NCBI GenBank assembly: GCA_965248145.1
Contig: OZ252091.1
Location: 3,218,082 to 3,282,081, forward strand
From: Gammaproteobacteria bacterium
GTDB lineage: Bacteria > Pseudomonadota > Gammaproteobacteria > Eutrophobiales > Eutrophobiaceae
Direction of reading: 5' to 3'
DNA length: 64,000 nucleotides
Shown here: piece after piece, positions 10,702-60,527 of the stretch
Layout: every line of letters begins with the position of its first letter
Position numbering within the stretch: the stretch's first letter is position 1
The notes under the pieces: generated by a model
The model's database searches: none
Told to the model about the DNA's origin: nothing
What the model saw: only the letters and a program-made list of their open reading frames with translations
Made by a program: the position numbers and the translations under genes

Positions 10702-10732
10702 CCATACAAACCCCAAGGGGTCGCTTTCCCCC

Positions 10733-10886
10733 GTCATTCCGGCGAATGCCGGAATCCAGTGAGATAGAGAGTCGCCTCCGGCGACACGTTATTAGACTGG
10801 ATTCCGGGTCAAGCCCGGAATGACGGGGGGGGTGGCTTTCGCAGGAATGACGGGGGGCACATCTGCTATTCCCGCGGAAGCGGGAA
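10733..10886. repeat. Cluster of nested-palindrome MITE-like elements (GTCATTCC...GGAATGAC family; contains dRS3-like ATTCCC-N8-GGGAAT)
   Basis: One full copy at 10733-10826, of the form GTCATTCC-GGCGAATGCC-GGAATCCAGTG...GTCGCCTCCGGCGACAC...CTGGATTCCGGGTCAAGCCCGGAATGACG. Partial copies follow (GGAATGACGG; ATTCCCGCGGAAGCGGGAAT). The cluster sits between the convergent 3' ends of the FAD oxidase and ccmG. Confidence 0.8.
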
Positions 10887-17300: not shown

Positions 17301-17390
17301 GTCATTCCTGCACAAGCAGGAATCCAGCCCAATAACGTGCCGCCGAAGGCGTGTCGTTTTACTGGATTCCGGCATTCGCCGGAATGACGG
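17301..17390. repeat. MITE-like nested-palindrome element (GTCATTCC...GGAATGAC family)
   Basis: gtcattcctgcacaagcaggaatccag ... ctggattccggcattcgccggaatgacgg. It lies at the convergent 3' ends of the hypothetical CDS and the TonB receptor. Confidence 0.75.
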
Positions 17391-37493: not shown

Positions 37494-37637
37494 GGGACAG
37501 ATCCTGACTTATCCTCACGAAATCGAAGTCCCGCCCCTGGATTCTGGCATTCGCCAGAATGACGACAGTGCAGGAAAACGCGGTCTGCCCCTTACACCTA
37601 TCCCAACCCTTCACTACGACAGAGGAACGTTAAGCTG

Positions 37638-44288: not shown

Positions 44289-44678
44289 TCATTCTGCAGC
44301 TATCAAGTCATCAATATTTATACGCAAAGCCGCCGCCAGCTTTTTAAGTGTGTCAATGCCCCCGGTTTTCTTGCCACTTTCAATTTGCGCGATGTAGCCC
44401 TGTTGCACACCAGACCTGGTTTCAAGTTCTTTTTGGGTCAGGCCGCGATATTCGCGCCAGATTCGCAACCGTTGTTCTTCATCCTGAAGCAACTTGTGCG
44501 CAACGTCGGCAGGAATAAGCTCATCTCCACCGGACGCCAACTCACTCATGGCATCATCCGCCGCCCGGATGTCCTCCGCGTCTTCGGCCAGTTCCAGCAA
44601 TCGGTGGTACAATTCAATAGGCAAAACCGCATATTCCGGTTGTCCGTCTTTTTCAATAACCTGTACGTGATTCATCAT
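44289..44678 (-). CDS. HigA-like XRE-HTH antitoxin
   Basis: 129 aa with a C-terminal HTH (LTQKELETRSGVQQGYIAQIESG). It lies downstream of the toxin and overlaps it, in the higBA order. Confidence 0.7.
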   Translation of the reverse strand: MMNHVQVIEKDGQPEYAVLPIELYHRLLELAEDAEDIRAADDAMSELASGGDELIPADVAHKLLQDEEQRLRIWREYRGLTQKELETRSGVQQGYIAQIESGKKTGGIDTLKKLAAALRINIDDLIAAE

Positions 44679-44932
44679 TTATAAACATCTCCTCTTGGCC
44701 CGACTTTCAAAACGATCAGCAAAAGCACACTTTTCTCAATAGCGCAAATCGCACGATAGCCTCCTACTCGCAATCTCCAATGAGGCGAACCGGATAATTG
44801 TCTCCACTCCCCCTGGTAGCTGTACGGATCAACAGCAATTGCCTCCAACTCGGATGCTATCTTCAACCTGATGTGTTTTGGTAATTTGCTCATGCTTTTG
44901 AGTGCTGTTTTTTTGTACTTCAGTTCGTACAT
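44675..44932 (-). CDS. RelE/ParE-superfamily toxin (HigB-like)
   Basis: 85 aa with a RelE/ParE fold signature (...WRLRVGGYRAICAIE...). Confidence 0.7.
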   Translation of the reverse strand: MYELKYKKTALKSMSKLPKHIRLKIASELEAIAVDPYSYQGEWRQLSGSPHWRLRVGGYRAICAIEKSVLLLIVLKVGPRGDVYK

Positions 44933-46118: not shown

Positions 46119-47798
46119 ATGACAAGATACGCTGACATAGGCAAGGCCAGGCAGATCAGTCGTCAGGCGCGTCGTGCATACCAATTCAACAAGCCCCGAG
46201 AGATCGACTCCGGCGAAATTAGCCACTTCCCGATGATCATCGCGGGCGGCGGGCCCATCGGGCTGGCGACTGCCATAGACCTTGCCCGTTGTGGCATTCG
46301 ATCCGTCGTCCTGGAAAAACACAATACCGTCACTGCTGGCTCCCGCGCTATCTGCTGGGCGAAACGTACCTTGGAAATACTTGACCGTATCGGGACCAGC
46401 GAACGCATGATGGAAAAAGGCGTGGTTTGGAACCAGGGCTGGGTCTACTTCGGCCAGGAAACCGAACCGATTTACAAGTTCGATTTACTGCCGGATAAAG
46501 AGCAGAAGTTTCCCGCGTTCATCAACCTGCAACAATTCTATGCCGAGGAATATTTGATCGATTTGTTTCCGGACCACGAGGAGACCGAAATTCGCTGGCA
46601 AAATGAAGTTATCGGCGTGGATAACGCCGCGGACAAAGTCACCGTCACGATCAAAACCCCCGCCGGGCATTACACGCTCAGTTGTGACTACCTGATTGCC
46701 GCGGACGGCCATCGCAGCCCGGTCCGGGACGCGCTGGATCTCGATTTCGTGGGCCGTGTGTTCGAGGACAACTTTCTTATTGCCGACGTGCGCATGAAAG
46801 CGGACTTTCCGGCAATTCGGCGCTTCTGGTTCGACCCGCCGTTCAATCCGGGCCAAACCTCGCTGATCCATAAACAGGCCGACGACGTCTGGCGTATCGA
46901 TTTTCAGATGGGCTGGGACATTGACCGTGATGAGGTGATGAAAGAAGAAAACATCGATGCCAGGATAAAAGCCTTTCTCGGTTCGGACCTTGAATTTGAA
47001 TACGAATGGGTAAGCCTGTACACGTTTAAATGTTGCCGGATGGAAAAATTCGTCCATGGTCGCGTCATTTTTGCCGGCGACTCCGCCCATCTCGTCTCGC
47101 CTTTCGGCGCGCGCGGCGCCAACGGCGGGTTGCAGGACGTTGACAATCTTGTCTGGAAGCTCAACCTGGTTTTAACAGGCGCCGCCCCGCCCGGCTTGAT
47201 CAACAGCTATGATGACGAACGGATCCATGGCGCAGAAGAAAACGTGATGAATTCATCCCGGAGTACGGATTTCATGACCCCCAAAAGTGAAATCAGTCTC
47301 GCCTTCCGCAATGCCACCCTGGAGCTTGCCAAAGATTTCGAATTTGCCCGCAAGTTCGTCAACCCGGGACGTCTTTCCGTCCCCAGTATCCTGGATGGTT
47401 CACCATTGAATACACCGGATGAAGATGAGTTCAGCGACAAGCAGCGGCCCGGCGCGCCCTGCCTTGACGCCCCTGTTTCCATCAACGGTGAGGACGCCTG
47501 GTTTTTAAACCAACTGGGGGACCGTTTCGTTGGTATTTATTTCAGCGAAGATGGAACAACGCCGGAAGAGATCAGTAGCATCGGCCTGGCTCAGGTCCCG
47601 GTTGAAACCATCACCGTGACCAGGACAAACAGCGGTGGCAACAATATCTTCGACAGCAAAGGCCTGTTACACCGGCACTATGATGCCCAGCCCGGCGCCT
47701 ATTACCTGATACGGCCTGACCAACACGTCGCCGCACGCTGGCGGGAATTCAACCTGGAAAAAGTATTAGACGCACTGGCCAGGGCAACCGGCCGATAA
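46119..47798 (+). CDS. FAD-dependent aromatic ring monooxygenase (MhpA/PheA-like, group A flavoprotein hydroxylase)
   Basis: N-terminal motif MIIAGGGPIGLATAIDL, then DG, then GD (FAGDSAHLVSPFGARGANGGLQD), with a C-terminal thioredoxin-like domain. The start may lie downstream of 46119. Confidence 0.75.
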   Translation: MTRYADIGKARQISRQARRAYQFNKPREIDSGEISHFPMIIAGGGPIGLATAIDLARCGIRSVVLEKHNTVTAGSRAICWAKRTLEILDRIGTSERMMEKGVVWNQGWVYFGQETEPIYKFDLLPDKEQKFPAFINLQQFYAEEYLIDLFPDHEETEIRWQNEVIGVDNAADKVTVTIKTPAGHYTLSCDYLIAADGHRSPVRDALDLDFVGRVFEDNFLIADVRMKADFPAIRRFWFDPPFNPGQTSLIHKQADDVWRIDFQMGWDIDRDEVMKEENIDARIKAFLGSDLEFEYEWVSLYTFKCCRMEKFVHGRVIFAGDSAHLVSPFGARGANGGLQDVDNLVWKLNLVLTGAAPPGLINSYDDERIHGAEENVMNSSRSTDFMTPKSEISLAFRNATLELAKDFEFARKFVNPGRLSVPSILDGSPLNTPDEDEFSDKQRPGAPCLDAPVSINGEDAWFLNQLGDRFVGIYFSEDGTTPEEISSIGLAQVPVETITVTRTNSGGNNIFDSKGLLHRHYDAQPGAYYLIRPDQHVAARWREFNLEKVLDALARATGR

Positions 47799-47851
47799 AA
47801 GGTGTCGCCCCCTGCTCAACACCATGCTGGGGCAGGCTCCGGCGACTCCTT
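47799..47851. repeat. 53-bp perfect direct repeat, left copy (aaggtgtcgccccctgctcaacaccatgctggggcaggctccggcgactcctt)
   Basis: Identical to 48906-48958. The pair brackets the Rpn pseudogene. Confidence 0.85.
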
Positions 47852-47854
47852 ATA

Positions 47855-48884
47855 TTATCGGATTAACCCCGCGTCGCTAAGCTGCTCAGGGCTAAGACCC
47901 GTGATTTCACTGACCTCTTGCAGGGAATAATCGTTCTGCAACATAGCGCGGGCGCTTTCAATTCTACCTTCTGCTCTGCCTTCTGCTTTGCCCTCTGCCC
48001 TGCCTTTTGCTTCGCCCTCTGCTCTGCCTTGCTCTCTACTCACCAACATATTCGTGTTGTAGTCCAACTCGCCCTTGCGACGCATCTCTTCAATACTTAA
48101 CAACTGCGGGTCTATCGACAGGGTCCGCAGATCCTTCAGGGTCTCCTTCATGATCGGATTTTTGTCTACTATAGTACGCATGGCAGCCTCGTCTAACGAT
48201 GATGTGTGTTTGATAATATATAACCATAGTCCCAGGTTGTCATCTATTTCTTCCAGTGTCCGGGTAAACTTGGGTAGTTCAAAAAACACCATCTGGAACT
48301 TGTCCGTCAGTTGTATATCAGGATGGTCTTTCTCCAGTATCAGGAAATGACTCTGGTAGTCCGGCAGGTCGAGCAGGTTGAAGTTCAGGAAGTTGATGGA
48401 ATAGGTGTTCTGCAGGGTCGTGTAGTTCTCGCCCTGGTTGAGTTGACCGGTATACAGCCTGGCCCCAGTAGTACAAGGCCCGGGCGCTGTAGAAGTGCTG
48501 TTCCAGGGCCTGCATCTCGATATTGAACAGGTCGCCGGCATGGCTTCGGGCCTTGATATCCAGTATTACCGATTTGTCGATCAGGTGCTCTTTGAGTATT
48601 TCAGCCGGCAGCAGGGTGAGTGCTTCTATCTGTTGTTCTCCTTCAAACCTCAGAGCCGCATTGAGCAGGTCTATCAGGGAAGCGGTGGAGCGCGTAAACA
48701 GGGCGCGAAAGACAAAATCATAGGTGAGGGCTAACAGCCTGGGATGGTCCATCATGAGATACCTGTATGTCCTATAAGTACGGGCTGAAACCCGGCAGCC
48801 GGTCCGGCGCAGTGATGGAGTCGGTCTTACAACCTTTCCACCACCACTGCGAACCAGTTTACCTGCCTGTTTTGCAAAAGTCAC
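47855..48884 (-). pseudogene. Rpn-family (YhgA-like, PD-(D/E)XK) recombination-promoting nuclease / transposase-like gene, frameshifted
   Basis: The N-terminal part is in ORF 48318-48884 (KSVILDIKARSHAGDLFNIEMQ). The C-terminal part is in the overlapping ORF 47855-48541, in another frame (EGEAKGRAEGKAEGRAEG...ITGLSPEQL, the typical Rpn C-terminus). Confidence 0.7.
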
Positions 48885-48905: not shown

Positions 48906-48958
48906 CAAGGTGTCGCCCCCTGCTCAACACCATGCTGGGGCAGGCTCCGGCGACTCCT
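48906..48958. repeat. 53-bp perfect direct repeat, right copy
   Basis: Identical to 47799-47851. Confidence 0.85.
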
Positions 48959-49125
48959 TGCCCACTGAGTTAACGAACCAAAAAACGCAATCACATCGCA
49001 GTTGCACTCAGCGCCTGTCTGTGTCATCATCCTGCTATTGTTTCATTACAGGAATATTATTGTGAATATAAAACAGTTAACCGGCGTTCCCATGGCACCT
49101 TTAACATCCACAGATGGTGACCTTT

Positions 49126-49134
49126 ATGGTATAA
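49126..49134 (+). promoter_or_regulatory. extended -10 promoter element TGgTATAAT upstream of the giant autotransporter gene
   Basis: tggtataat at 49126-49134. No convincing -35 element at 17-bp spacing. Confidence 0.4.
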
Positions 49135-49142
49135 TGGCGGGT

Positions 49143-49191
49143 AGCCGACAGCCGACAGCCGACAGCCGACAGCCGACAGCCGACAGCCGAG
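49143..49191 (+). repeat. heptanucleotide simple sequence repeat (AGCCGAC)x6 plus AGCCGAG in the leader of the autotransporter gene
   Basis: A perfect 7-bp tandem tract lies 28 bp upstream of ATG 49219 and immediately downstream of the TATAAT box. The copy number was deduced from the translation of ORF 49002-49265 (SRQPTADSRQPTADSRA). Confidence 0.85.
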
Positions 49192-49218: not shown

Positions 49219-52200
49219 ATGCCTCAGCTAGCGGGCGCCTCCGGGCTGCGAGAATGCCCACCTGAATCTTTCTACTCCGCGTCCCCATCGCGCGGGGATT
49301 TCCCTCAGACCTCATCGTTCCGCCGCATCGCGGCGGCCTCGCGTGGGCTGCTTCGGGCAGCGGCTACGCTCGCGTTCGTCGCGTCCATCGCCATCCCGGC
49401 GTCGGCTCAGGCCGCCGAACTGGTCAGCAACTTCGACCAGACCGGCGACACGAGTAACGGTGTGAGTAGGGCAGTCGCGCAACAGTTCACGACGGGTACG
49501 AACTCGGGCGGCTACACGCTGACCAACATCAAGTTCAAGTCCGAGGACACCGATGGCGATTCCTACTCGGTGTCGGTGTGCACGGTTCTCGCTTCGGGAT
49601 TTCCCGACGAGACAGACTGCACGGCGCTCACCGCGCCGAGCGGCACTAATGCCTTCGCGGCCGGGACCCACACTTTCGCCGCGCCGGACGCCACCACGCT
49701 CAAGAAGGAGACGAAATACACCGCGCTCATCACCATCCCAGACACAGAAAATGTCACCCTTGACGCGACAACCTCCAATGGCGAGGACACCGGCGGCGCC
49801 GCCGGATGGACGATCGCAGATGCATACGATTTCAAGAACTCTTTTAATGTGTGGGGTACAGCCCCCCCCCCATTTGGCTCGGAGATTCGCATCGAGATCA
49901 ACGGGGAGACCCCACCGACAGTCTCCTCGGTAGCGGTCACCTCGACGCCGAGCGCGGCCAGCGATACCTACGGGGCGGGCGAGGAGATCGAGTTCACCGT
50001 CACCTTTTCGGAGGCGGTCGAGGTGAGCGCGGGCCAACCGCATTTCGAGTTCGCGCTCGGCAACTCGGGCAGCCCATCCGTGGACAAGGATGCGACCTAC
50101 CAGAGTGGCTCGGGCTCCACGGCGCTGGTGTTCGCCTACACGGTGGTGGCCGCCGACATGGACGACAACGGCATCTGGGTCGGAGATCAGTCGCGTACCC
50201 TGATGCTCGACACCGGCGAATACATCCGCGCCGTGGACGACCAGACCTCGGCCACGCTCACCCACGCCGCACTAAGCACGCAATCCGGCCACAAGGTGGA
50301 CGGCAGCCTGATGGTTACCAACAACGCCCCGGTATTCCCGGCCGAGGCGTCGACGCGCGAGTTGACGGAGAACGTGGCGGCGAACGTGAATGTCGGCGCC
50401 CCGGTGAGGGCGACCGACGGCGAAGGCGACACGCTGACCTATTCGTTCGGCGGGACGGACGTGGGCAAGTTCAATTTCAATGCGGCGACGCAACAGATCA
50501 CGACCAAGTCGGGCCAGACTTACGACTACGAGACGGATGCGTCCTACACGGTGACGGTCACGGCGACCGACGGCACGACGCCGACCACCGTCACCGTGAC
50601 CATCAATGTGATCGACCTGCCCGCGATCAGCATCGCGCCAGAGCCAGGGAAGGCGCGGCTGCTGATTACGGCGGGAGTGGTCTCGGTCGATCTGTCCGGG
50701 TCGCCGCGGCCCTCTGGCAACCTTACGATCAACTTTTCCGCGCAGCAGGACCATGACTGGTTCTCGAGTTCCTCTCTTACGGGTAGTACGCACTACGACA
50801 GACCCGACGACGAATATGGGCAGCCCAGTTTCACTTTCCTAGCGGACGCGCCGGTAGAGAGCGGCGACTTCACGGTTACGCTGCAGCCGGGCGACGGCTA
50901 CGAGATCGGCACGGCGGCGGCGACCGTCGAGATCGTCGCGGCGGACCCGGTGATCACGGTGCGCGCGGCGGAGGCGGCCTACAGTTTCGGGGAAGGCGAC
51001 GGCACGGTGACGGTGACGCTCACGGCGGAGACCATCGCCGATGCGCCGAAGCCGAGAAATAGCATCTTTGTGAACTGGTCAACTACGGCGGGCACGGCGA
51101 CCGGCGGCGGCACGGATTTCGAGAACGGCAACGGCGAAGTCCTGTTCGGCTCGGGGAACTTCACGCAACAGGGCACCCGCTGGGTGGCGACCAAGGATAT
51201 CGAGGTCATCCTGGTGGACGACGCCGTGAAGGAAGAGACCGAACAGTTCCAGGTGACGCTCACGAGGCACTCCAGCCTGCACCCGCTGGTCAAGCTGGCG
51301 AACGTGGACAGGTCGCTGTGCGCGCCGGGCGTCAATTGCGGCACGACGGTCAACATCCTCGACAACGAACCCGGCGTGACGATCTCGAAGACGGCACTGG
51401 ACATCCTCGAAGGCGGCACCGGCAGCTACACGGTGGTGCTCGATTCTGAGCCGACGGCGACGGTGACGGTCACGCCGTCGCGCACCAGCGGCGATACGGA
51501 CATCACCGTGAGCGGCGCCCTCACCTTCACCACAACCACCTGGAGTGTGGCGCAGACGGTGACGGTCAGCGCGGCCGAGGATGATTCGGATTCGGATGTC
51601 GATAGGGCCGTGATCGGCCACGCGGTGAGCGGCGGCAACTACGCCTCGGTCACGGCCGCTTCGGTGGCCGTCACCGCGGCTGACAACGATGCGCCCGACG
51701 AGTCCGCCACCGGCAAGCCGACGATTTCAGGGACGGCGCAGGTCGGCCAGACGCTGATCGCGGCGAAGGGCAGCATCGACGACCCAAACGGGCTGACCAA
51801 GGCCGACAACGACGAGACGGGCTTCGCCTACACCTACCAGTGGATCCGGGTGGATTCCGACGGCACGTCGAACCCGATGAATGTCGGGACCGACTCCGAC
51901 GCCTACCCGCTGGTGGCGGCGGACGAGGACAAGCAGATCCGGGTCAGGGTGAGCTTCGTGGACGACAATGGCTACGCGGAGGCGCGGACGAGCGACCCGT
52001 ATCCGTCCTCGGACACGGTCCTGCCGTCTTCGGCGGTGAGCCTGTTGTTGTCGCCTGCATCGATCCGCGAGAACGGCGGCACGACCAGGATCAGGGCAAG
52101 GCTGAACGTGGAGTCGAGTGCCGAGACGACGGTCACGGTATCGGTCGAGCCGGTCCCGCCGGCGGTTGCCGGGGACTACGAGCTGAGCGCCAACACGGTG

Positions 52201-55200
52201 CTGACGATTCCCGTCGGGCGGACCTCCAGCACGGGCCTGGTGACGCTGACGGCGGTGAACAACGATGTGGACGCGGACGACAAGACGGTCATCATCCGGG
52301 GTGTTGCGGAGAACAGCGCGGGCGTTGGCGCTCCGGCGGAGCAGACGCTGACGATTGAGGACGACGATCAGGGCGTGCGGCTGAGCCCGACGTCGCTGAT
52401 GATCGATGAGGGCCGCAGCAAGGGCTACACGGTGGTGTTGGGGTCGCGACCCACGGGGTCGGTGACGGTGACGCCGCAGGTCACGGGCGGCATGGTGACG
52501 GTGTCGGGGCCGCTCGTGTTCACGCGGGACAACTGGGACGAGCCGCAGACGGTGACGGTGACGGCGGGCCAGGACGAGGACGAGGAGGACGAGACGGTCC
52601 AGGTGACGCACCTGGTGTCGGGCGCGGATTACGGCGGCTTCACCGCGGGCAGCGTGCGGGTGATGGTGAGCGACGACGACGGCGGCACGGGCGTGCTGGA
52701 GGTGGGTGTGTATGACGGCTCGGCCGGGGCCGGCGTCAAGGACCCGCCGCCGCGGGTGCATTTCGGGCAGCGGTTCCGGCTCGACCTGGTGTGGTCGCAT
52801 CTGCGCACCAAGCATTGGGCCAAGCCGCAGGGCGCGATCGGGCCGACCCGGGCGATCCGGGTGGTCGGCGGGACGGTGCGCCCGGTGCAGGGGCGGTTCA
52901 GCGTGTCCAGCCACGGCTGGGACCAGTCGCGCCTGACGCTCGAGGTCACGCCTGTGCCGAGCGCAGACAGCGACGACGTGACGCTGGTCCTGGAGCCGTT
53001 GGATTGCAGCAGCAATGACCCGAAGGCGCTGTGCTCGCTCGACCGCGGGAGGTGGACCGGCCTGGCGAAGCGGGTGCGCTTCACGGTGCGGGGCATCACC
53101 GGCGCACCGGTGATGGCGGCGGCGGAGCTGGACCTGACGGTGACCCCGCAGGAACGGCGCGGCAAGGATTCCTTCCTGGTGAGCTTCGACGCCGACGAGG
53201 AGGGGACGCGCTTCCGGCTGCAGATGCAGGAGGCCGGCGGGGACTGGTCGAGGAAGAGCGAGTGGACCGGGGCGATGCGCTCGGAGAACCAGCATCGGGT
53301 GACGGTCGACGGGGTGTCGCACGATGACGCCTACCAGTTCCGGGTGCGCTGGGAGAACCGCTTCGGGAATGGGCCGTGGGCGCAAGCGAGCACGGCCGGC
53401 GCGGCGCCGGCGGCGCCGACGGGGCTCAGGCTGACGCCGATGTACCAGGACAAGAGTCTGGCGCTCGCCTGGACCCCGGTGACGCAGGCCGGGGTGCGGA
53501 TCGAGCGGTTCCAGTACCGGATCGACCGAACCCGTAGCGAGGAACTGGTGATCCTTTCGGACACGGGGCCGATGCAATACCGGGGCAATTGGGTCGACAT
53601 CCCGAACAGCGGACGAGGCAACGCGAACTACCGTTCGTGGACGATCGGGGGACTCGCGAACATGTGGGCCGCCAGGATCCGCGTGCGTGCAGTGAACGAG
53701 TCAGGCCGTGCGGGCACGCCCTCAGCGGAAGCGGTGGCGCCGCTCGACGTGCCGCGGGTGGCGGACATCTCGATGGCGTCGGACCCCGGTGCCGACGGGT
53801 ACTACACGTACGGAAACAAGATCGGGATCAACGTGCGGCTGAGCCGTCCGGTCCGCATCCCGGGTAACGATCAGAGACCGTCACTGGACGTCGAGATCGG
53901 CGGCGGCGTGTACAGCATGGGGCTGGTGTCGATCCGGCAGTCGGTGGCGCATGAACTGATCGGACAGGCGCCGTGGTCGGGCGACGTGCTGTTGTTCGAG
54001 CACAGCCTTGGTACAGGTGACGTGGACCACAACGGGATCCGGGTACCGGCCAGCGCGCTCAAAGGCAATGGAGGACGGCTGCTCGACCTGACACCCGCGG
54101 GAGAGGGCCAGTTGGCGGACCTCGCCGTGAGCACGGCAAAAACCTTCCCGGCGCACAGGGTGAACACGGTCCCGCCGCGCATCGTGCGCATGACCTGGCA
54201 GCAGAACCTGGACGCGAACGGCGTGGTGCGGGGCGCCGAGGTGCGCATCCACTACGACCGCGACCTCGACCCGAATTCGAGACTCAGTCTCGACTGGAAT
54301 CAGTACCGGGTCGAGTATTCAGAGTCGCGGGCGCTCGGGCGCGACGTGACGGGCCTGAGCATCGGCGACGCCACCGACGACGGTGTCGATAACCCCCGGA
54401 CGGTGCGGCTGGTCCTGAAGCGGGTGGTCCATGGTTCGGGCGCCACCCCGCACAACAGCCCGCAGCTGAATGAGACCGTGTGGGTGACCTATACGGGAGT
54501 GGGAGTGAGTGGGAACAGCGGGCGGCGATTCGGCCCGTTCGATACGCTGGGGAACCCTGTCGCGGGCTTCACCCGGAGGGTGGCGGAGCACGTGACCGCG
54601 ACGCAGGCAGCGTTGGCGGCGGAGTTCCGGAACGTGCCGGCCGGGCACAACAGCCCGTTCACCTTCGAGGTGCATTTCAGCGAGGAGGTCACGCTCACCG
54701 AAGAGATGCTGCTGAACTCGGTCTTCACGGTGACGAATGGCACGGTGTCGGCCGCGCGGCGGCTCAATCCGCCGAGCAACATCGCCTGGGAGATCACGGT
54801 CGATTCATCCTCGGACGAAGCGGTGACGGTGGTGCTGCCGAAGACGACGGACTGCACGGCGGCGGGCGCGATCTGCACCTGGGACAACCGCCCGCTGTCG
54901 GCGGAGATCTCGGCGACGGTGGCTGGCCCGCCGACCGTGGTGACGAGTGTGGCGGCGACCAACGCACTGACGGCGGAGCTGCGGGACCTGCCGGAGAGCC
55001 ACGACGGGAGCGCGTTCACCTTCGAACTGCGCTTCAGCGAGGCATTCCCGATCAGCTACCTGACGCTGCGTGACCGTGCGTTCACGGTGACCAACGGACA
55101 TGTGACCGGGGCGAGACGCCTGGACAATCCGCACCACGAGTCCGCCGGTATGGAACCCAACCGGGAGTGGGAGATCACGGTCGAGCCCGGCACGGGCGCC

Positions 55201-58200
55201 GAAGAGGTGTCGATTATCCTCCCTGAAACGACCGACTGCACCGCGACCGGCGCCATCTGCACCGCGGACGACCGTGCACTGTCGGTGGGGGTAGCGGTGT
55301 TCATCGGGGCGGACTCGGAGGACGAGGAGGCGGTAGTGGTGGATGAGCCGACAGTGGAGCCGACACCGAACGCGACCGGCGCCCCGGTGATTACGGGCAC
55401 GACGCAGGTGGGTAAGACTCTGACCGCGGCGAAGGGCAGCATTGCCGACACCGACGGGCTGACCAGGGCCGACGCCAGCGCTACGGGCTACACCTACAGC
55501 TACCAGTGGATGCGGGTAGACGGCACGTCGAAGACCGGCATCACCGGCGCGACGTCAAGCGCCTACACGCTGGCCGCCGCCGATGAGGGTAAGAAGATCA
55601 AGGTCAAGGCGAGCTTCCGGGACGACGCCGGCACTGACGAGGCGCGCACCAGTGCGGCCACCGGGACGGTGGCGGCTGCGCCTCCGCCTCCGCCGCCGCC
55701 GCTCACGGCAGCGTTCTCCGACGTGCCGTCGACACATGACGGCTCAACGGCGTTCGTCATGCACTTCCGCCTCAGCGAGGAGCCGCACGACCTAAGCTAT
55801 GTCACGGTGCGCGACTCCGTGTTCGACGTGACCGGCGGGCGCATCGAGCGCGCCAAGCGGCTGACGCAGGGCAGTAACCAGGGCTGGGCCCTGCGGGTGG
55901 CGCCGTCCGGCGACGGCGACGTGACCGTGCGAGTGAAGAACACCACCGCGTGCACGAGCGGGCCGAAACTGTGTAGCGAAGACGGGCGCATGCTCGCAGG
56001 CGGTCTTCAGGTAAGTATCGAAGGCCCACCACCGCCGGCGCTGTCGGTGGCGGATGCGACAGTGCAAGAGGCCGCGGGGGCGACACTCGCCTTCGCAGTC
56101 ACCCTGGACCGGACGCCCAACACCGCGGTGACGGTCGACTACGCCACTGCGGACGGGACCGGGACCAGGCCCGCGAACGCGGGCACGGACTATACCGCAA
56201 CCAGTGGCACGCTCACCTTCGCCAGCGGGGAGAGCAGCAAGACCGTCTCGGTCGCCGTGCTTGATGACAGCCACGATGAGGGTGAGGAGACCATGTCCCT
56301 GACCTTGTCGAACCCGTCCGGCGCCAGTATCGCTGATGCCACGGCAACCGGGACCATCACCAACACCGATGCCATGCCGCTGGCCTGGCTGTCCCGCTTT
56401 GGCCGCACCGTGGGGACGCATGTAATGACCATGGTGGACGAGCGTATGCTGGCGGCCTCGCAGCAGGCGTCCCACCTGACGTTGAATGGCCGACAGTTGC
56501 AGTGGGGTACGCCGGGGCAGGCGGACCATGGCCTGTCCGACCGCGCACGGGCGTTACTCGGCAACTGGACCCGGGACCGGCAGTCGCTGGAGACCCTGCT
56601 GAGCGGGAACGTAGGCGGAAGCCCGCGCGAAGTCCTGTCCCGCAGTTCGTTCTATTGGAGTAATGTGCCCGTCCCCGGGTCGGATACAGGACAAGGAGTC
56701 GCCTCCGGCGACACAGTATCTGACTGGATGCCGGGTCAAGCCCGGCATGACGAAGGTGGTGCAGCCGGACCTGAGCCGCTCTGGCCGGACATGGGTCAAT
56801 CCCAAGATGGCGAAAGCAGCACTCCGTCATTCCCGCGAAAGCGGGAATCCAGTGAACAAACCGTCGCCGCAGGCGACACCTTATTCGACTGGACTCCGGG
56901 TCAAGCCCGGCATGACGAAGGTGGTGCAGCCGGACCTGAGCCGCTCTGGCCGGACATGGGTCAAGCCCAAGATGGTGAAAGCAGCACTCCGTCATTCCCG
57001 CGAACGCGGGAATCCAGTGGACAAACCGTCGCCTCCGGCGACACAGTATCTGACTGGATGCCGGGTCAAGCCCGGCATGACGAAGGTGGCGCAGCCGAGC
57101 CTGAGCCGGTCTGGCCGGGCGCAGCCGAGGCAGACACCGGGCCGCGCTGGTCGGTCTGGGGCCGCGGCATGATGACGGGCTTCAACGGCCAGGATGGCGA
57201 TGTGTCGCTCAACGGCGACGTGTTGACCGGCCTGCTGGCCGCAGACTACAGCCACGGCCGGCTGCTGGCCGGGGTGTCCCTGTCCTACAGTGACGGGCAC
57301 GGCAGCTACAGCCAACCCGGCGACCCACAGGGCAAGGTCAAGAGCACTCTCACCGGGGTCCATCCATACCTGCGTTACGAAGTGAACCAGAGCCTGTCGG
57401 TATGGGGCGTACTCGGCTACGGCCAGGGTGCAGTGACACTGACCCCGGGCAGTGCCGGGGACGCTGGGGACGGACTTAAGTCCGTCCCCGGAGAGGTCAT
57501 CGAGACCGACATGAGCATGGGCATGGGCGCCTTCGGGGCGCGCGGCACGCTGTTGTCCGGGAACGGCCTCAACCTGGCGCTGAAGTCGGACGTCCTGCTG
57601 GTGCGTACCGACGCACAGGACACCGACGGACTGGCGTCCCTGGATGCAGTGGACACCAGCCGCCTGCGCCTGGCCCTGGAGGGCTCGCGCATGCTCCAAT
57701 GGGCGAACGGGCGCAGCCTGCTGCCGGCCCTGGAACTGGGCCTGCGCTATGACGACGGCGATGCCGAGACCGGGTTCGGCGCCGAACTGGGTGGCCGGGT
57801 GCAATACCAGGATATGACCCTGGGCCTGACCGTGGCGACCCATGCCCGGGTCCTGCTCGCCCACGAGGACAGTGGCTATGAGGAATGGGGACTGGGCGGC
57901 TCGCTCAGCCTCGACCCCGGCGCCGCCGGACTGGGGGCGTCCCTGGACCTGCGCTCCTCCTGGGGCGCCGTGGCCAGCGGCATAGACGGGTTGTGGTCAC
58001 AACAGACCACCGCGGGTCTCGCGCGGGGCGGCATGGAGAGTAATCGTGCAATGCAGTTCGAGACCCGGTTGGGGTACGGCCTGGAGGTGCCCGGCGGGCG
58101 TAACCTCCTCACCCCGTACGGTGGCCTCACCCTGGCCGGCCCCAACTCCCGTGTGTACCGCCTGGGTGGCGTATTCAGACGCGGGGAGTTACTTGAGCTG

Positions 58201-58281
58201 AGCCTGGACGCCGAGCGCCGGGAAAACCTCGGCGCCCTGCCCGACCACGGCCTGATGCTGCGTGTTTCCATGCCGTGGTAG
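49219..58281 (+). CDS. giant (3020 aa) autotransporter adhesin
   Basis: The roughly 64-aa N-terminal region ends in AFVASIAIPASAQA. The passenger contains cadherin-like repeats, an FN3-like region, and repeated Cys-pair (TTDCTA(T/A)GAICT) and Calx-beta-like (VTVTP...SG.L.FT...W...QTVTV.A..D) modules. The linker carries AMPLAWLSRFGRT. The C-terminal roughly 300-aa beta-barrel ends ...RVSMPW. GC is about 65% against about 50% for the flanks. Confidence 0.8.
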   Translation: MPQLAGASGLRECPPESFYSASPSRGDFPQTSSFRRIAAASRGLLRAAATLAFVASIAIPASAQAAELVSNFDQTGDTSNGVSRAVAQQFTTGTNSGGYTLTNIKFKSEDTDGDSYSVSVCTVLASGFPDETDCTALTAPSGTNAFAAGTHTFAAPDATTLKKETKYTALITIPDTENVTLDATTSNGEDTGGAAGWTIADAYDFKNSFNVWGTAPPPFGSEIRIEINGETPPTVSSVAVTSTPSAASDTYGAGEEIEFTVTFSEAVEVSAGQPHFEFALGNSGSPSVDKDATYQSGSGSTALVFAYTVVAADMDDNGIWVGDQSRTLMLDTGEYIRAVDDQTSATLTHAALSTQSGHKVDGSLMVTNNAPVFPAEASTRELTENVAANVNVGAPVRATDGEGDTLTYSFGGTDVGKFNFNAATQQITTKSGQTYDYETDASYTVTVTATDGTTPTTVTVTINVIDLPAISIAPEPGKARLLITAGVVSVDLSGSPRPSGNLTINFSAQQDHDWFSSSSLTGSTHYDRPDDEYGQPSFTFLADAPVESGDFTVTLQPGDGYEIGTAAATVEIVAADPVITVRAAEAAYSFGEGDGTVTVTLTAETIADAPKPRNSIFVNWSTTAGTATGGGTDFENGNGEVLFGSGNFTQQGTRWVATKDIEVILVDDAVKEETEQFQVTLTRHSSLHPLVKLANVDRSLCAPGVNCGTTVNILDNEPGVTISKTALDILEGGTGSYTVVLDSEPTATVTVTPSRTSGDTDITVSGALTFTTTTWSVAQTVTVSAAEDDSDSDVDRAVIGHAVSGGNYASVTAASVAVTAADNDAPDESATGKPTISGTAQVGQTLIAAKGSIDDPNGLTKADNDETGFAYTYQWIRVDSDGTSNPMNVGTDSDAYPLVAADEDKQIRVRVSFVDDNGYAEARTSDPYPSSDTVLPSSAVSLLLSPASIRENGGTTRIRARLNVESSAETTVTVSVEPVPPAVAGDYELSANTVLTIPVGRTSSTGLVTLTAVNNDVDADDKTVIIRGVAENSAGVGAPAEQTLTIEDDDQGVRLSPTSLMIDEGRSKGYTVVLGSRPTGSVTVTPQVTGGMVTVSGPLVFTRDNWDEPQTVTVTAGQDEDEEDETVQVTHLVSGADYGGFTAGSVRVMVSDDDGGTGVLEVGVYDGSAGAGVKDPPPRVHFGQRFRLDLVWSHLRTKHWAKPQGAIGPTRAIRVVGGTVRPVQGRFSVSSHGWDQSRLTLEVTPVPSADSDDVTLVLEPLDCSSNDPKALCSLDRGRWTGLAKRVRFTVRGITGAPVMAAAELDLTVTPQERRGKDSFLVSFDADEEGTRFRLQMQEAGGDWSRKSEWTGAMRSENQHRVTVDGVSHDDAYQFRVRWENRFGNGPWAQASTAGAAPAAPTGLRLTPMYQDKSLALAWTPVTQAGVRIERFQYRIDRTRSEELVILSDTGPMQYRGNWVDIPNSGRGNANYRSWTIGGLANMWAARIRVRAVNESGRAGTPSAEAVAPLDVPRVADISMASDPGADGYYTYGNKIGINVRLSRPVRIPGNDQRPSLDVEIGGGVYSMGLVSIRQSVAHELIGQAPWSGDVLLFEHSLGTGDVDHNGIRVPASALKGNGGRLLDLTPAGEGQLADLAVSTAKTFPAHRVNTVPPRIVRMTWQQNLDANGVVRGAEVRIHYDRDLDPNSRLSLDWNQYRVEYSESRALGRDVTGLSIGDATDDGVDNPRTVRLVLKRVVHGSGATPHNSPQLNETVWVTYTGVGVSGNSGRRFGPFDTLGNPVAGFTRRVAEHVTATQAALAAEFRNVPAGHNSPFTFEVHFSEEVTLTEEMLLNSVFTVTNGTVSAARRLNPPSNIAWEITVDSSSDEAVTVVLPKTTDCTAAGAICTWDNRPLSAEISATVAGPPTVVTSVAATNALTAELRDLPESHDGSAFTFELRFSEAFPISYLTLRDRAFTVTNGHVTGARRLDNPHHESAGMEPNREWEITVEPGTGAEEVSIILPETTDCTATGAICTADDRALSVGVAVFIGADSEDEEAVVVDEPTVEPTPNATGAPVITGTTQVGKTLTAAKGSIADTDGLTRADASATGYTYSYQWMRVDGTSKTGITGATSSAYTLAAADEGKKIKVKASFRDDAGTDEARTSAATGTVAAAPPPPPPPLTAAFSDVPSTHDGSTAFVMHFRLSEEPHDLSYVTVRDSVFDVTGGRIERAKRLTQGSNQGWALRVAPSGDGDVTVRVKNTTACTSGPKLCSEDGRMLAGGLQVSIEGPPPPALSVADATVQEAAGATLAFAVTLDRTPNTAVTVDYATADGTGTRPANAGTDYTATSGTLTFASGESSKTVSVAVLDDSHDEGEETMSLTLSNPSGASIADATATGTITNTDAMPLAWLSRFGRTVGTHVMTMVDERMLAASQQASHLTLNGRQLQWGTPGQADHGLSDRARALLGNWTRDRQSLETLLSGNVGGSPREVLSRSSFYWSNVPVPGSDTGQGVASGDTVSDWMPGQARHDEGGAAGPEPLWPDMGQSQDGESSTPSFPRKRESSEQTVAAGDTLFDWTPGQARHDEGGAAGPEPLWPDMGQAQDGESSTPSFPRTRESSGQTVASGDTVSDWMPGQARHDEGGAAEPEPVWPGAAEADTGPRWSVWGRGMMTGFNGQDGDVSLNGDVLTGLLAADYSHGRLLAGVSLSYSDGHGSYSQPGDPQGKVKSTLTGVHPYLRYEVNQSLSVWGVLGYGQGAVTLTPGSAGDAGDGLKSVPGEVIETDMSMGMGAFGARGTLLSGNGLNLALKSDVLLVRTDAQDTDGLASLDAVDTSRLRLALEGSRMLQWANGRSLLPALELGLRYDDGDAETGFGAELGGRVQYQDMTLGLTVATHARVLLAHEDSGYEEWGLGGSLSLDPGAAGLGASLDLRSSWGAVASGIDGLWSQQTTAGLARGGMESNRAMQFETRLGYGLEVPGGRNLLTPYGGLTLAGPNSRVYRLGGVFRRGELLELSLDAERRENLGALPDHGLMLRVSMPW
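56698..57115 (+). repeat. about 2.5 in-frame tandem copies of a 165-nt unit containing the GTCATTCC...GGAATGAC MITE, inside the autotransporter linker
   Basis: The unit starts at 56698, 56863 and 57028, a period of exactly 165 nt (55 codons). Each unit contains gtcgcc(tcc/gca)ggcgacac ... ctgga.tccgggtcaagcccggcatgacg ... gtcattcccgcgaa(a/c)gcgggaatccagtg. Each unit is about 85% identical to the intergenic element at 10733-10826. Confidence 0.85.
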
Positions 58282-59871: not shown

Positions 59872-60282
59872 CTAACAGCTTTCCAACCAATCTTTTATTT
59901 TGAGGCCGCCAACACGCATAAATTCTCTCACGTTATGCGTAACAAGGGTTGTCCTCAGAGTCTTGGCATGGGCCGCTATCAGTAAATCATACGGACCAAT
60001 CGGATTACCGGTCTTCTTAAGTTCGGCGCGCAGGTTTCCGGCAGCGTATGCACATTCCTTAGTCCACTCCACTACCTGAATATATTCAAGAAAACTATTC
60101 AACGTGTGCGTATTTTGTTTCCGTTTTTTTGATTTACTCACACCGTATTGCAGTTCATACAAACTAATCGCCGAGATTCCCACCTCATCCACACCATTCT
60201 TTATCAATTGTTGACGAACCTGAACAGGGTAATTGTTCATGATCGCGATGGAAGTATCCGTATCCAGCAAGAACTTGAGCAT
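59872..60282 (-). CDS. vapC: VapC PIN-domain ribonuclease toxin
   Basis: 136 aa. The N-terminus LLDTDTSIAIM carries the PIN acidic residues. It lies downstream of vapB. Confidence 0.8.
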   Translation of the reverse strand: MLKFLLDTDTSIAIMNNYPVQVRQQLIKNGVDEVGISAISLYELQYGVSKSKKRKQNTHTLNSFLEYIQVVEWTKECAYAAGNLRAELKKTGNPIGPYDLLIAAHAKTLRTTLVTHNVREFMRVGGLKIKDWLESC

Positions 60283-60284
60283 GT

Positions 60285-60527
60285 TTAATCCTTTATCGAT
60301 GCACGGGGAATATCACCTGGTAGTTGTACGCCTTCAATGGAAAAATCTTCTGATAATGGGGGGGTATCGTCCATAAAGCCTTTCCATGACGCCGGTGTCG
60401 GTGAGATGATAATATTTTTCCCTTCTTTTCTGATGAGTACGACATCACTATCCATCCGAAAATTACGGGGTAATCTCACGGCCTGGCTGTTACCGCTTTT
60501 AAATACTTTTGTCGTTTGCTGATGCAT
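60285..60527 (-). CDS. vapB: VapB antitoxin (SpoVT/AbrB-like swapped-hairpin domain)
   Basis: 80 aa (KVFKSGNSQAVRLPRNFRMDSDVVLIRKEG). Confidence 0.75.
   Translation of the reverse strand: MHQQTTKVFKSGNSQAVRLPRNFRMDSDVVLIRKEGKNIIISPTPASWKGFMDDTPPLSEDFSIEGVQLPGDIPRASIKD

Follow-up and report, generated by a model that had tools for sequence, protein, structure and literature searches.

Type Va autotransporters such as BrkA, NalP, EspP, Hbp and AIDA-I (PF03797) carry an N-terminal signal peptide and a C-terminal β-barrel of ~250 residues and 12 strands that ends in an aromatic residue. In classical members, the helix upstream of the barrel is contiguous with strand 1. Their passenger is typically a β-helix, though this is optional. 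Passengers built as arrays of Ig-like domains are typical of type Ve proteins and T1SS adhesins, not of type Va. Type Ve proteins (intimin, invasin) and T1SS RTX adhesins (LapA, SiiE, MpIBP) have a long Ca2+-binding stalk of Ig-like, cadherin-like or Calx-beta domains with a distal binding domain. Three further precedents bear on the locus described here. The sponge aggregation factor contains Calx-beta domains (PMC11670116). Rickettsia palindromic elements, or intragenic MITEs, are repeat elements inserted in frame into open reading frames (PMC10969869). Giant bacterial genes have atypical oligonucleotide and codon usage, according to a passage in PMC2528017 that cites Reva & Tummler 2008.

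We analysed a window of 64,000 nucleotides (the whole stretch of DNA under study), in which one gene encodes a protein of 3,020 residues. It is probably a giant type V (autotransporter-like) surface adhesin, encoded on an accessory, recombining cassette that was most likely exchanged laterally and whose GC-richness is shared by the whole family. The gene adds to an already known sort of modular autotransporter-type surface proteins. The host, an uncultured gammaproteobacterium, is probably associated with sponges. MAGs and metagenomes with names that we take to be sponge-derived (APA_, RHO3_, SB0675_, MKWU01) supply the great majority of relatives, both of the neighbouring monooxygenase and of the barrel.

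The open reading frame noted in the initial annotation was called intact from its ATG start, and the same call was obtained on the source contig, which is circular, 3.77 Mb long and covered 98x. The GC rise was recomputed in 1-kb windows, giving 0.61 to 0.70 within the gene as opposed to 0.41 to 0.56 in the flanks. The codon positions of the gene had GC1, GC2 and GC3 of 0.635, 0.533 and 0.848, respectively, while the GC3 of the 28 other ORFs in the window ranged from 0.47 to 0.70. The GC3 far above GC1 and GC2 indicates a real coding frame. The GC jump had been placed exactly at the gene boundaries. This holds for the 5′ edge, where GC rises abruptly from 0.39 at 49019 to 0.63 to 0.76 from 49219; at the 3′ edge, however, GC declines gradually through the amidase stump to ~58680. 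The antisense ORFs, which had been called spurious, showed GC1 (0.82 to 0.93) above GC3 (0.52 to 0.72) and are indeed shadows of the sense-frame GC3. The coordinates of all features are given in Table 1.

Table 1. Features of the giant gene and its surroundings (positions in the 64,000-nt window)
Feature	Position	Strand	Evidence
Intergenic reference copy of MITE-like element, host backbone	10731..10825	+	Sequence comparison
53-bp direct repeat, copy 1, one base past monooxygenase stop codon, hairpin-capable	47799..47851	+	100% identical to copy 2
Rpn-family (YhgA-like, PD-(D/E)XK, TIGR01784/PF12784) recombination-promoting nuclease pseudogene	47855..48884	-	Profile halves (2-95, 90-271) in two frames
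53-bp direct repeat, copy 2	48907..48959	+	53/53 identity; also in L001
Sigma-70-like promoter candidate, TCCACA-17-TG-n-TATAAT (extended -10)	49107..49135	+	Match to consensus only, 10/12 positions plus TG
Perfect tract of 6.9 AGCCGAC heptamers between -10 box and ATG	49143..49190	+	Repeat analysis
Giant ORF, 3,020 aa, GC 0.672, GC3 0.848	49219..58281	+	ORF call, composition, source contig
N-terminal extension (34 aa) and putative Sec-type signal peptide (RRIAAASRGLLRAAATLAFVASIAIPASAQA/AE)	49219..49413	+	Read from sequence
Choice-of-anchor R head domain, aa ~72-229	49432..49905	+	NF041539, 55.5 bits, cut-off 30
Cadherin repeat, aa 396-464	50404..50610	+	26.1 bits, under Pfam cut-off 28.8
Calx-beta domain 1, aa ~578-689	50950..51285	+	35.4 bits
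QVGQTL Ig-like (A9/ZirU-like) module 1, aa 841	51705..52023	+	Motif, DNA repeat, weak ZirU-family match
Two fn3 domains, aa ~1314-1500	53158..53730	+	39 bits, 2 stretches
Three Cys-pair modules, Cys 1879/1886, 2007/2014, 2245/2252	54601..56013	+	Motif search
QVGKTL module 2, aa 2063, between Cys-pair modules	55381-55683	+	Motif, DNA repeat
Calx-beta domain 2, aa 2277-2377	56047..56349	+	67.5 bits
Conserved α-helix AWL(S/A)RFGRT..., aa 2385-2415, candidate pore-spanning	56371..56463	+	AlphaFold2 pLDDT 90-94, model residues 6-36
Variable disordered helix-to-barrel linker, aa 2416-2642	56464..57144	+	pLDDT 28-47
In-frame tandem array, 2.6 units of 165 bp (55 codons each), around 95-bp MITE-like element	56691..57185	+	Repeat analysis
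C-terminal β-barrel domain, aa 2643-3020, ends in W	57145..58278	+	Homologues, AlphaFold2, fold matches
Amidase remnant, last ~61 codons only	58377..~58562	-	Profile positions 408-464 of 468

The signal peptide was read by eye at aa ~35 to 65, where RR is followed by a hydrophobic core and AQA/AE; it would correspond to the N-terminal Sec signal of type Va autotransporters. In a relative (P0131), a canonical signal peptide lies at the very start of the protein and is followed by the same head domain. A search with the N-terminal 316 aa showed that the head stretch and/or an adjoining module of ~140 aa are common to many proteins of other domain make-up. The choice-of-anchor R domain of this head had been missed in the initial annotation.

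Most of the passenger modules expected from the initial annotation were located, namely the two Calx-beta domains, the three Cys-pair modules and the two QVG(Q/K)TL modules, and the FN3-like content was resolved by profile search into two fn3 domains. Cadherin-like domains had been listed in the plural; one repeat was found, however, as a single match that falls below the Pfam cut-off. A self-BLASTP of the giant protein gave no internal matches, and its internal repeats were taken from DNA repeats and motif searches; the DNA of the two QVG(Q/K)TL modules is 79% identical over 150 nt. Relatives carry the same C..GA(I/V)CT module immediately ahead of their last Calx-beta domain. The passenger is composed of cadherin, fn3, Calx-beta, Ig-like and choice-of-anchor R modules, as opposed to the β-helix of type Va. 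This modular stalk with a distal domain resembles those of type Ve proteins and T1SS RTX adhesins. Compared to type Ve, however, the topology is opposite, with the signal peptide at the N-terminus and the barrel at the C-terminus, and the RTX/T1SS C-terminal signal and nearby ABC/MFP/TolC genes of the T1SS adhesins are missing. Eukaryotic-like-domain proteins of sponge symbionts share the habitat signal and the domain repertoire (cadherin, fn3), with SRCR, Cadherin-like and SWM_repeat domains in the relatives, but differ from the giant protein in its autotransporter-type anchor and choice-of-anchor R head.

The C-terminus is a divergent autotransporter-type module, in which a helix of 30 residues, conserved family-wide, is followed by a disordered linker and a barrel. 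The linker differs in length and sequence among relatives and places the helix ~228 residues before strand 1, compared to roughly 90 to 130 in the aligned relatives. As had been noted, the protein ends in W (...LMLRVSMPW), and its C-terminus is β-rich in the AlphaFold2 models. Family members share the consensus end ...HGLxLxxxLxW, in which some have F as the last residue, and this aromatic end corresponds to the β-signal for BAM. The giant protein itself gave no match to PF03797, even at E <= 10, and lies below all Pfam and NCBIfam autotransporter models. At the sequence level, nothing relevant came up in the PDB, whether the query was the barrel profile or a relative that matches PF03797. PF03797 was matched, however, by 13 of 51 close family members (43 to 56% identity) at 33 to 48 bits, against a cut-off of 26. 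These relatives, together with the AlphaFold2 models, are the basis for the autotransporter assignment. The barrel start motif W.WGRG...G...DGDV.TG.LGADY and the PF03797 matches of the relatives indicate a putative common ancestry with autotransporters. Homologue searches were run with the barrel and with the N-terminal 316 aa as queries, and in the 10,418 cluster representatives (450 to 6,700 aa) the barrel is always C-terminal. Short homologues were considered as a family of small proteins, a reading that we rejected; those checked were mostly C-terminal fragments of giants split in the linker, and a few appeared to be genuinely short standalone genes (L043).

The initial designation as a giant autotransporter adhesin holds for a modular surface protein whose barrel appears to be of autotransporter ancestry, but several features depart from type Va. 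DSSP assigned 18 strands across ~378 barrel residues in both AlphaFold2 models, and the helix is far from strand 1 in sequence. The barrel could be a larger outer-membrane anchor of 16 to 18 strands for a passenger exported by other means, or could define a type V subclass, as yet undescribed, whose linker is periplasmic. This is consistent with the long and variable linker and with the PF03797 matches in relatives, which span only positions 2 to 208 of the 255-position profile, i.e., the first ~200 barrel residues. The generic OMP_b-brl model was also matched by 25 of the 51 family members. Furthermore, TonB-dependent receptors and Occ porins were among the fold matches of model 1, whose TM-score to BrkA was just 0.41/0.58. 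When the helix was included, however, autotransporter β-domains came out on top of the PDB fold matches, i.e., BrkA (E = 1e-8, TM 0.72, target-normalised), NalP, Hbp, EspP, AIDA-I, AaaA and EstA. The start motif and the PF03797 matches also speak against this reading, and no TpsB or T1SS partner genes were found nearby. We consider a barrel outside type Va improbable. Still more remote is the idea of a relic that is decaying or has no function, or of an ORF produced by misassembly, kept open only by the rarity of stops at high GC. Pseudogenes (Rpn, amidase) do lie in the neighbourhood, in many relatives the gene is broken within the linker, and one antisense frame contains just 20 stops, with open runs of up to 657 codons. 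The sense frame, however, has no internal stop in 3,020 codons, as opposed to 20 to 118 in the other five frames, and its codon-position GC pattern, its domains, intact and collinear with the family, and the deeply covered circular contig speak against decay. In addition, the MITE array within the gene preserves the frame (165 = 55 x 3).

Upstream of the giant gene, the annotated Rpn-family pseudogene between perfect 53-bp direct repeats was confirmed. Two overlapping minus-strand ORFs, 47855-48541 and 48318-48884, cover TIGR01784 positions 90-271 and 2-95, respectively, and both halves score above the cut-off of 52.1 (88.8 and 53.7 bits). With its profile halves divided between overlapping frames, it is a frameshifted pseudogene, a family member by homology with no full-length single frame. 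The 53-bp match was never reproduced in shuffled sequence. The repeat folds with -29.7 kcal/mol (z = -3.97) and belongs to a hairpin/REP-like family; degenerate relatives of it sit at the 3′ end of the related L002 gene, directly past its stop codon. We examined the two copies as att sites of an island and discarded this reading; they bracket the Rpn pseudogene only, and related hairpins occur elsewhere. Downstream, the amidase remnant is present as annotated and shares 84% identity with the complete L013 amidase. Its interpretation as a scar of the giant-gene insertion, however, did not hold, since what is left is the 3′ end, on the side of the giant gene, and the 5′ part was lost on the far side, which indicates a separate event.

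The initial annotation had proposed a synteny comparison at this site. In 27 species-level relatives, the sequence extends at least 3 kb past the monooxygenase, and 26 of these lack a family member beside it. One of them (L013) shows an empty site, in which the monooxygenase is followed by 53 bp and then an intact 466-aa amidase. Another relative (L012) carries a different family member near the same monooxygenase, with 27% barrel identity. L002 shares only window positions 55204-58279, from the Cys-pair region on, at ~90% nucleotide identity. The shared segment extends to the stop codon and no further, and its flanks are different ones, in another genomic context. The giant gene is a lineage-specific accessory gene, and its patchy presence is as expected of horizontal acquisition. 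It is not a classical, site-specifically integrated island, however, as there is no integrase among the neighbours of the giant gene and no att site, and tRNA and Rfam scans of the 64,000-nt window were negative. Family relatives in L039, L040 and L042 adjoin integrases and IS elements.

A tblastx search of the family-locus flanks against the window and the relatives found no orthologous flank genes, and dinucleotide signatures were compared in their place. The distance δ* between the giant gene and its host was 187, much larger than that within the host (31.5 +/- 9). The composition is atypical for the host and yet cannot identify a donor. The family signature matched none of the host backgrounds tested, high-GC ones included. 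Family members have GC of 0.64 to 0.76, compared to 0.48 to 0.75 for the host flanks. The barrel of the window clusters with those of L037, L038 and L041 (~50% amino acid identity) in a deep clade found in moderate-GC hosts only, with gene GC of 0.66 to 0.71 and flanks of 0.51 to 0.57. High GC is poor evidence of recent transfer, since the trait is family-wide and includes these deep moderate-GC branches. As in the giant genes of atypical usage mentioned above, the composition of a repeat-rich giant surface-protein gene is far from that of the genome; here, however, the shift is a consistent one towards high GC3, across thousands of members and hosts of varied GC.

The GC-rich clade in moderate-GC hosts fits long residence as well as transfer. 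The gene could be a long-standing resident of the symbiont clade, belonging to a fast-evolving paralogous adhesin family whose GC is kept intrinsically (e.g., by GC-biased gene conversion in the course of frequent module and paralogue recombination, or by family-specific amino-acid or codon constraints), the absence from the site in relatives being due to loss and rearrangement in a variable region. The flank of L037 shares the dinucleotide signature of the window's host (δ* of 27, inside the intra-genome range), and barrel GC follows flank GC only loosely (slope 0.19, r = 0.43). Even in high-GC hosts, family genes are atypical of their own flanks (δ* of 87 to 117) and resemble one another more (48 to 64). 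The GC step coincides with the ORF ends at several family loci, a family member lies by the same monooxygenase in L012, and the mosaic alleles (L002, L001) show recombination. The record of giant repeat-rich genes with atypical oligonucleotide usage, as given in the cited part of PMC2528017, points the same way. On the other hand, the synteny results are less readily reconciled with residence, in particular the near-uniform absence of a family member at this site with one intact empty site, and the L002 allele, which has other surroundings and matches no further than the stop codon, as well as the integrases and IS elements next to relatives. We regard long residence as unlikely, though a rival to be reckoned with. 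The initial claim of horizontal acquisition is only partly supported, by the site comparison and by L002, and loses the support of GC and dinucleotide composition, which are family-wide.

For the preferred reading, a laterally exchanged type V adhesin, we infer the secretion route, topology and adhesive function, and the direction and timing of transfer, as follows. The N-terminal Sec signal would route the protein to the periplasm, where BAM would insert the aromatic-ended barrel into the outer membrane through its β-signal, and the conserved 30-residue helix would occupy the pore. The passenger of ~2,300 residues would then be displayed as a stalk of ~20 β-sandwich modules, several of them probably stiffened by Ca2+, among which are one cadherin, two fn3, two Calx-beta, two A9/Ig-like and three Cys-pair modules. 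The choice-of-anchor R head at the tip would presumably bind host matrix or other cells. The gene is a recombining accessory cassette, set in a variable region with many toxin-antitoxin modules, and in this lineage most likely entered between the monooxygenase and the convergent amidase through lateral exchange in the gene pool of the sponge microbiome. After its arrival, or in a closely related host, a MITE of the host type would have inserted in frame in the tolerant linker and been tandemly amplified.

The locus offers, in a closed genome, a complete example of a surface protein that probably mediates attachment between a sponge symbiont and its host, with eukaryote-like modules that include the Calx-beta domain also present in the sponge aggregation factor. 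The family is very large (>10,000 cluster representatives) and poorly modelled, the Pfam autotransporter model missing many members, the giant protein included. It also calls for caution in island calling, as a GC anomaly that is a property of the gene family is no proof of recent transfer. More tentatively, the high GC3 (~0.85 to 0.9) and the signature might be actively maintained in moderate-GC symbionts, likely by recombination-linked GC-biased gene conversion, as opposed to being un-ameliorated traces of transfer, and the family might form a distinct type V subclass with an enlarged barrel and a long, insertion-tolerant linker able to take up mobile elements in frame. We hold this to be rather doubtful; if true, such adhesin genes would serve in bacteria as natural reporters of GC evolution driven by recombination.

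The MITE-like element inside the giant gene is 85% identical to its intergenic copy. The 95-bp unit has terminal inverted repeats (GTCATTCCGG...CCGGAATGAC), and its arms resemble the ATTCC-N-GGAAT hairpins (dRS3/REP-like). Additional copies lie at 17319-17390 and 37537-37564, and more were found in the relatives L008, L012 and L025. These inverted repeats and dispersed copies are those of a MITE/REP-type element, for which neither target-site duplications nor a cognate transposase were identified. As with the Rickettsia palindromic elements, a palindromic host element of ~95 bp bearing TIRs lies in frame within a coding region and would be translated with it. It belongs to another element family, however, is tandemly amplified in 165-bp units, and occupies a variable linker rather than a folded enzyme.

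The promoter-heptamer junction had no match in JGI metagenomes when these were scanned for the exact pattern. The heptamer tract has ~7 copies in the window and ~2 in L001, the one minor-strain contig (same sample, 1x coverage) on which this copy-number variation is based. The tract, at the predicted start of the transcript and differing between the two strains, may tune expression. L001 also contains an extra block of cadherin-like and fn3 modules (~585 bp) just upstream of the cadherin repeat, at ~50325. The differences in heptamer number, domain block and MITE array length suggest that this host-interface protein diversifies rapidly inside one sponge microbiome.

The giant adhesin gene is an uninterrupted ORF of 3,020 aa, and the same ORF was called on the source contig, a circular 3.77-Mb assembly at 98x coverage (ENA ERZ25766727). 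The sense frame had no internal stops, as opposed to 20 to 118 in the remaining five frames. GC recomputed in 1-kb windows was not uniform, with 0.61 to 0.70 in the gene versus 0.41 to 0.56 in the flanks, confirming a real and GC-rich gene. Its overall GC was 0.672 (GC1/2/3 of 0.635/0.533/0.848), compared to a GC3 of 0.47 to 0.70 in the other window ORFs (n = 28). The long antisense ORFs over the gene showed GC1 higher than GC3 and are therefore shadows of the sense GC3, spurious as the initial annotation had held. That annotation had also placed the GC jump exactly at the gene boundaries; the 5' step was indeed sharp, but on the 3' side GC fell across the amidase stump to ~58680.

The last 383 residues of the protein had hundreds of homologues. 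A profile search retrieved 10,418 cluster representatives with this barrel domain (450 to 6,700 aa), and the domain was C-terminal in every one. Among 51 close relatives, 13 matched PF03797 above the cut-off (33 to 48 bits vs. 26; profile positions 2 to 208 of 255) and 25 matched OMP_b-brl. AlphaFold2 predicted the barrel alone as a confident all-beta domain with a mean pLDDT of 83 and 18 DSSP strands, and in a longer model these 18 strands recurred, preceded by a 30-residue helix and a linker predicted as disordered. Foldseek searches of the PDB with the longer model placed autotransporter beta-domains on top, with BrkA (E = 1e-8, target-normalised TM 0.72) followed by NalP, Hbp, EspP, AIDA-I, AaaA and EstA; the matches were weaker with the barrel alone. 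In the alignment of the family sharing this barrel, a constant order of Cys-pair module, Calx-beta, helix (AWLARFGRT...), short strand pair and variable linker preceded ...GSSFHL..., RWS.WGRG... and a barrel ending in W. An autotransporter with such a barrel had been proposed from the sequence, and the fold matches and PF03797-positive relatives support it; however, profile searches including Pfam matched the giant protein itself to no autotransporter model, and PDB searches with the barrel profile and with a PF03797-positive relative gave no relevant sequence match. On the PF03797 matches in relatives, the fold matches and the fixed module order, we filed the protein as autotransporter-like, with a predicted type Va topology. 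Compared to type Va, the strand count of the predicted model and the helix-to-barrel distance are non-canonical, and the passenger is not a beta-helix. The non-canonical barrel and linker are among the most novel defensible angles of the family.

The initial description of the gene was largely right. Its Calx-beta, fn3, Cys-pair and QVG(Q/K)TL modules were recovered in the passenger, but the cadherin-like domains were reduced to a single repeat below the cut-off. The homologous protein P0131 carries a plain signal peptide followed by the same head domain. The remainder of the giant protein consists of beta-sandwich-like repeats matching no model, and its ...TVTFSEAVEV...HKVDG module is widespread among similar proteins.

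Positions of features in the window, the giant protein and contigs from other strains and relatives (L001 to L041)
Feature	Sequence	Position	Remark
95-bp element, intergenic copy	window	10731-10825	85% identical to in-gene element
95-bp element, partial copies	window	17319-17390, 37537-37564	intergenic host DNA
Amidase paralogue, full-length	window	37638-39134	20 kb upstream of amidase stump
Toxin-antitoxin pair, ParE + HTH	window	44289-44932 (-)	
FAD monooxygenase	window	46119-47798	
53-bp repeats	window	47799-47851, 48907-48959	53/53 identical; first starts one base past monooxygenase stop codon
12/24-bp tandem repeat (TCTGCC...)	window	47963-48030	within 3' part of Rpn pseudogene; encodes short Glu/Ala/Gly/Lys-rich repeat
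Heptamer tract (AGCCGAC)	window	49143-49190	6.9 copies, perfect
Giant gene	window	49219-58281 (+)	
165-bp tandem repeat in linker	window	56691-57185	2.6 copies, 55 codons/unit
Right-hand block, unusually AT-rich	window	58.7-61.5 kb	GC 0.42-0.46, GC3 0.47-0.49
Toxin-antitoxin pair, PIN/VapC + AbrB/MazE-like	window	59872-60527 (-)	
N-terminal extension	giant protein		34 residues, upstream of signal peptide
Sec-type signal peptide	giant protein		RRIAAASRGLL...ASAQA|AE, read in sequence
Choice-of-anchor R domain	giant protein	aa ~72-229	NF041539, 55.5 bits, cut-off 30
Cadherin repeat, one	giant protein	aa 396-464	Pfam, 26.1 bits, slightly under cut-off
Calx-beta, two	giant protein	aa ~578-689, 2277-2377	Pfam
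fn3, two	giant protein	aa ~1314-1500	Pfam
Cys-pair modules, three	giant protein	Cys 1879/1886, 2007/2014, 2245/2252	
QVG(Q/K)TL Ig-like modules, two	giant protein		
Helix before linker	giant protein	aa 2385-2415	pLDDT 90-94
Heptamer tract	L001	570-582	~2 copies; exactly 35 bp shorter
Additional cadherin-like + fn3 block	L001	1711-2296	~585 bp (~195 codons)
53-bp repeat, degenerate copies	L002	4095-4120, 4205-4250	directly 3' of gene's stop codon
95-bp element, three copies	L012	12006-12119, 12846-12959, 19613-19723	bracket the family gene
Family gene	L012	13179-19412	2,077 aa
Linker split	L037	~10001-10055	overlapping frames
Linker stop codon	L038	9693-10001	then different ~120-bp tandem repeat
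Two family genes in tandem	L041	6517-15270	another metagenomic genome

Horizontal acquisition, as claimed initially, is plausible on phyletic grounds. No family member was found downstream of the monooxygenase in 26 of 27 species-level relatives, each with at least 3 kb of downstream sequence. An empty site was recovered in the relative contig L013, where just 53 bp separate the monooxygenase from a convergent amidase that is intact (466 aa); at its 3' end this amidase is 84% identical to the window's amidase stump. L014 lacks the giant gene, and its monooxygenase has homologues of the window's VapBC-like pair 2 kb away. The L002 contig, from another sample, showed ~90% nucleotide identity to window 55204-58279 only; similarity does not extend past the stop codon, the low-GC flanks carry other genes (ArsB, PSD, TetR), and the modules before the shared segment are not the same. 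Integrases and IS elements adjoin more distant family relatives in high-GC hosts. This phyletic pattern speaks for a gain of the giant gene.

The GC anomaly, however, is weaker evidence for acquisition than the initial annotation took it to be. Across 61 metagenome loci, barrel GC was 0.64 to 0.76 versus 0.48 to 0.75 in the downstream flanks, with a median excess of +0.063 (above +0.08 at 22 loci) and a regression slope on flank GC of only 0.19 (r = 0.43). Neighbour joining placed the barrel of the giant gene together with those of L037, L038 and L041 (~50% identical), a clade with a GC of 0.66 to 0.71 in moderate-GC hosts (0.51 to 0.57). By dinucleotide signature distance (delta*), the L037 flank was indistinguishable from the window's host (27; intra-host range 12 to 43). 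The giant gene was distant from its own host (187) and from every other background tested, including high-GC ones (93 to 195). Family genes were likewise atypical of their own flanks (66 to 172), and several were mutually close (48 to 64). In the related MAG L012, a different family member (GC 0.69, GC3 0.86, 27% barrel identity; three Cadherin-like, two fn3, one Calx-beta, barrel) lies 1.5 kb downstream of that genome's own orthologous monooxygenase, and from this case the locus may be a hotspot of repeated insertion. Family-wide high GC and a signature shared across hosts therefore make the anomaly a family trait. Atypical oligonucleotide usage is also described for giant repeat-rich genes, in a statement that PMC2528017 takes from Reva & Tummler 2008. 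One serious rival is a recombining family of long residence whose GC would be maintained intrinsically, and such maintenance is itself among the most novel defensible angles. Lateral gain remains our preferred reading, on the phyletic distribution; GC cannot carry the case.

Upstream of the giant gene, the Rpn-family gene (TIGR01784/PF12784) is split across two frames and flanked by the perfect 53-bp repeats, as initially annotated. The repeat has a strong hairpin fold and degenerate copies after the L002 stop codon, which place it in a REP-like or terminator-like family. Its two perfect copies here probably date from the Rpn insertion. These repeats were considered as limits of the adhesin gene and rejected, as they bracket only the pseudogene. 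The amidase remnant, previously read as consistent with an insertion scar, is real, but its missing 5' portion lies on the side facing away from the giant gene, adjoining an AT-rich block with an alpha/beta-hydrolase and a PIN/AbrB-like pair; the truncation was an event of its own. Scans of the window and neighbouring genes found no tRNA, integrase or Rfam family. Toxin-antitoxin pairs flank the region, and the right-hand block may itself be foreign. The amidase paralogue adjoins aldehyde:ferredoxin oxidoreductase-like and enoyl-CoA hydratase genes.

Every 165-bp unit of the linker array holds a 95-bp MITE-like element with terminal inverted repeats (GTCATTCCGG/CCGGAATGAC) and three hairpins, and the array translates in frame as ...SFPRKRESS...DWMPGQARHDEGG.... 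Further copies of the element occur in relatives, and the array of the L002 allele is one unit shorter than that of the window. Neither a target-site duplication nor a cognate transposase was identified for the element. Rickettsia offers a precedent for MITEs inserted in frame (PMC10969869). If the helix occupies the pore, the linker loop would be periplasmic, which could explain its tolerance of insertion. The giant gene is split exactly at this linker in several relatives, and this segment seems generally prone either to repeats and frame disruption or to long-read assembly errors.

The heptamer tract starts 8 nt downstream of an extended -10 promoter-like site and is shorter in L001, a 1x minor-strain contig from the same sample; such a tract could tune expression or mediate phase variation. 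The additional L001 block lies immediately before the window's cadherin repeat (window ~50325), and at 1x coverage only this large indel is trustworthy in the comparison.

The best relatives of the monooxygenase (82 to 87% aa identity) were from uncultured Gammaproteobacteria MAGs, including APA_bin_93, RHO3_bin_19 and SB0675_bin_28, which we take to be sponge-derived isolate names. Barrel relatives in JGI and WGS metagenomes came from a handful of projects, e.g., MKWU01, presumably sponge metagenomes. Cadherin-like, SWM_repeat and SRCR domains are present in relatives of the giant protein, and the sponge aggregation factor contains Calx-beta domains (PMC11670116). We regard the family, very large and poorly annotated, of which the giant protein is one more member, as autotransporter-anchored modular proteins of sponge-associated bacteria with a predicted adhesive role. 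Both tandem family genes of L041 encode SRCR (scavenger receptor cysteine-rich), Cadherin-like, SWM_repeat and Calx-beta domains, and PIN toxin-antitoxin modules flank them.
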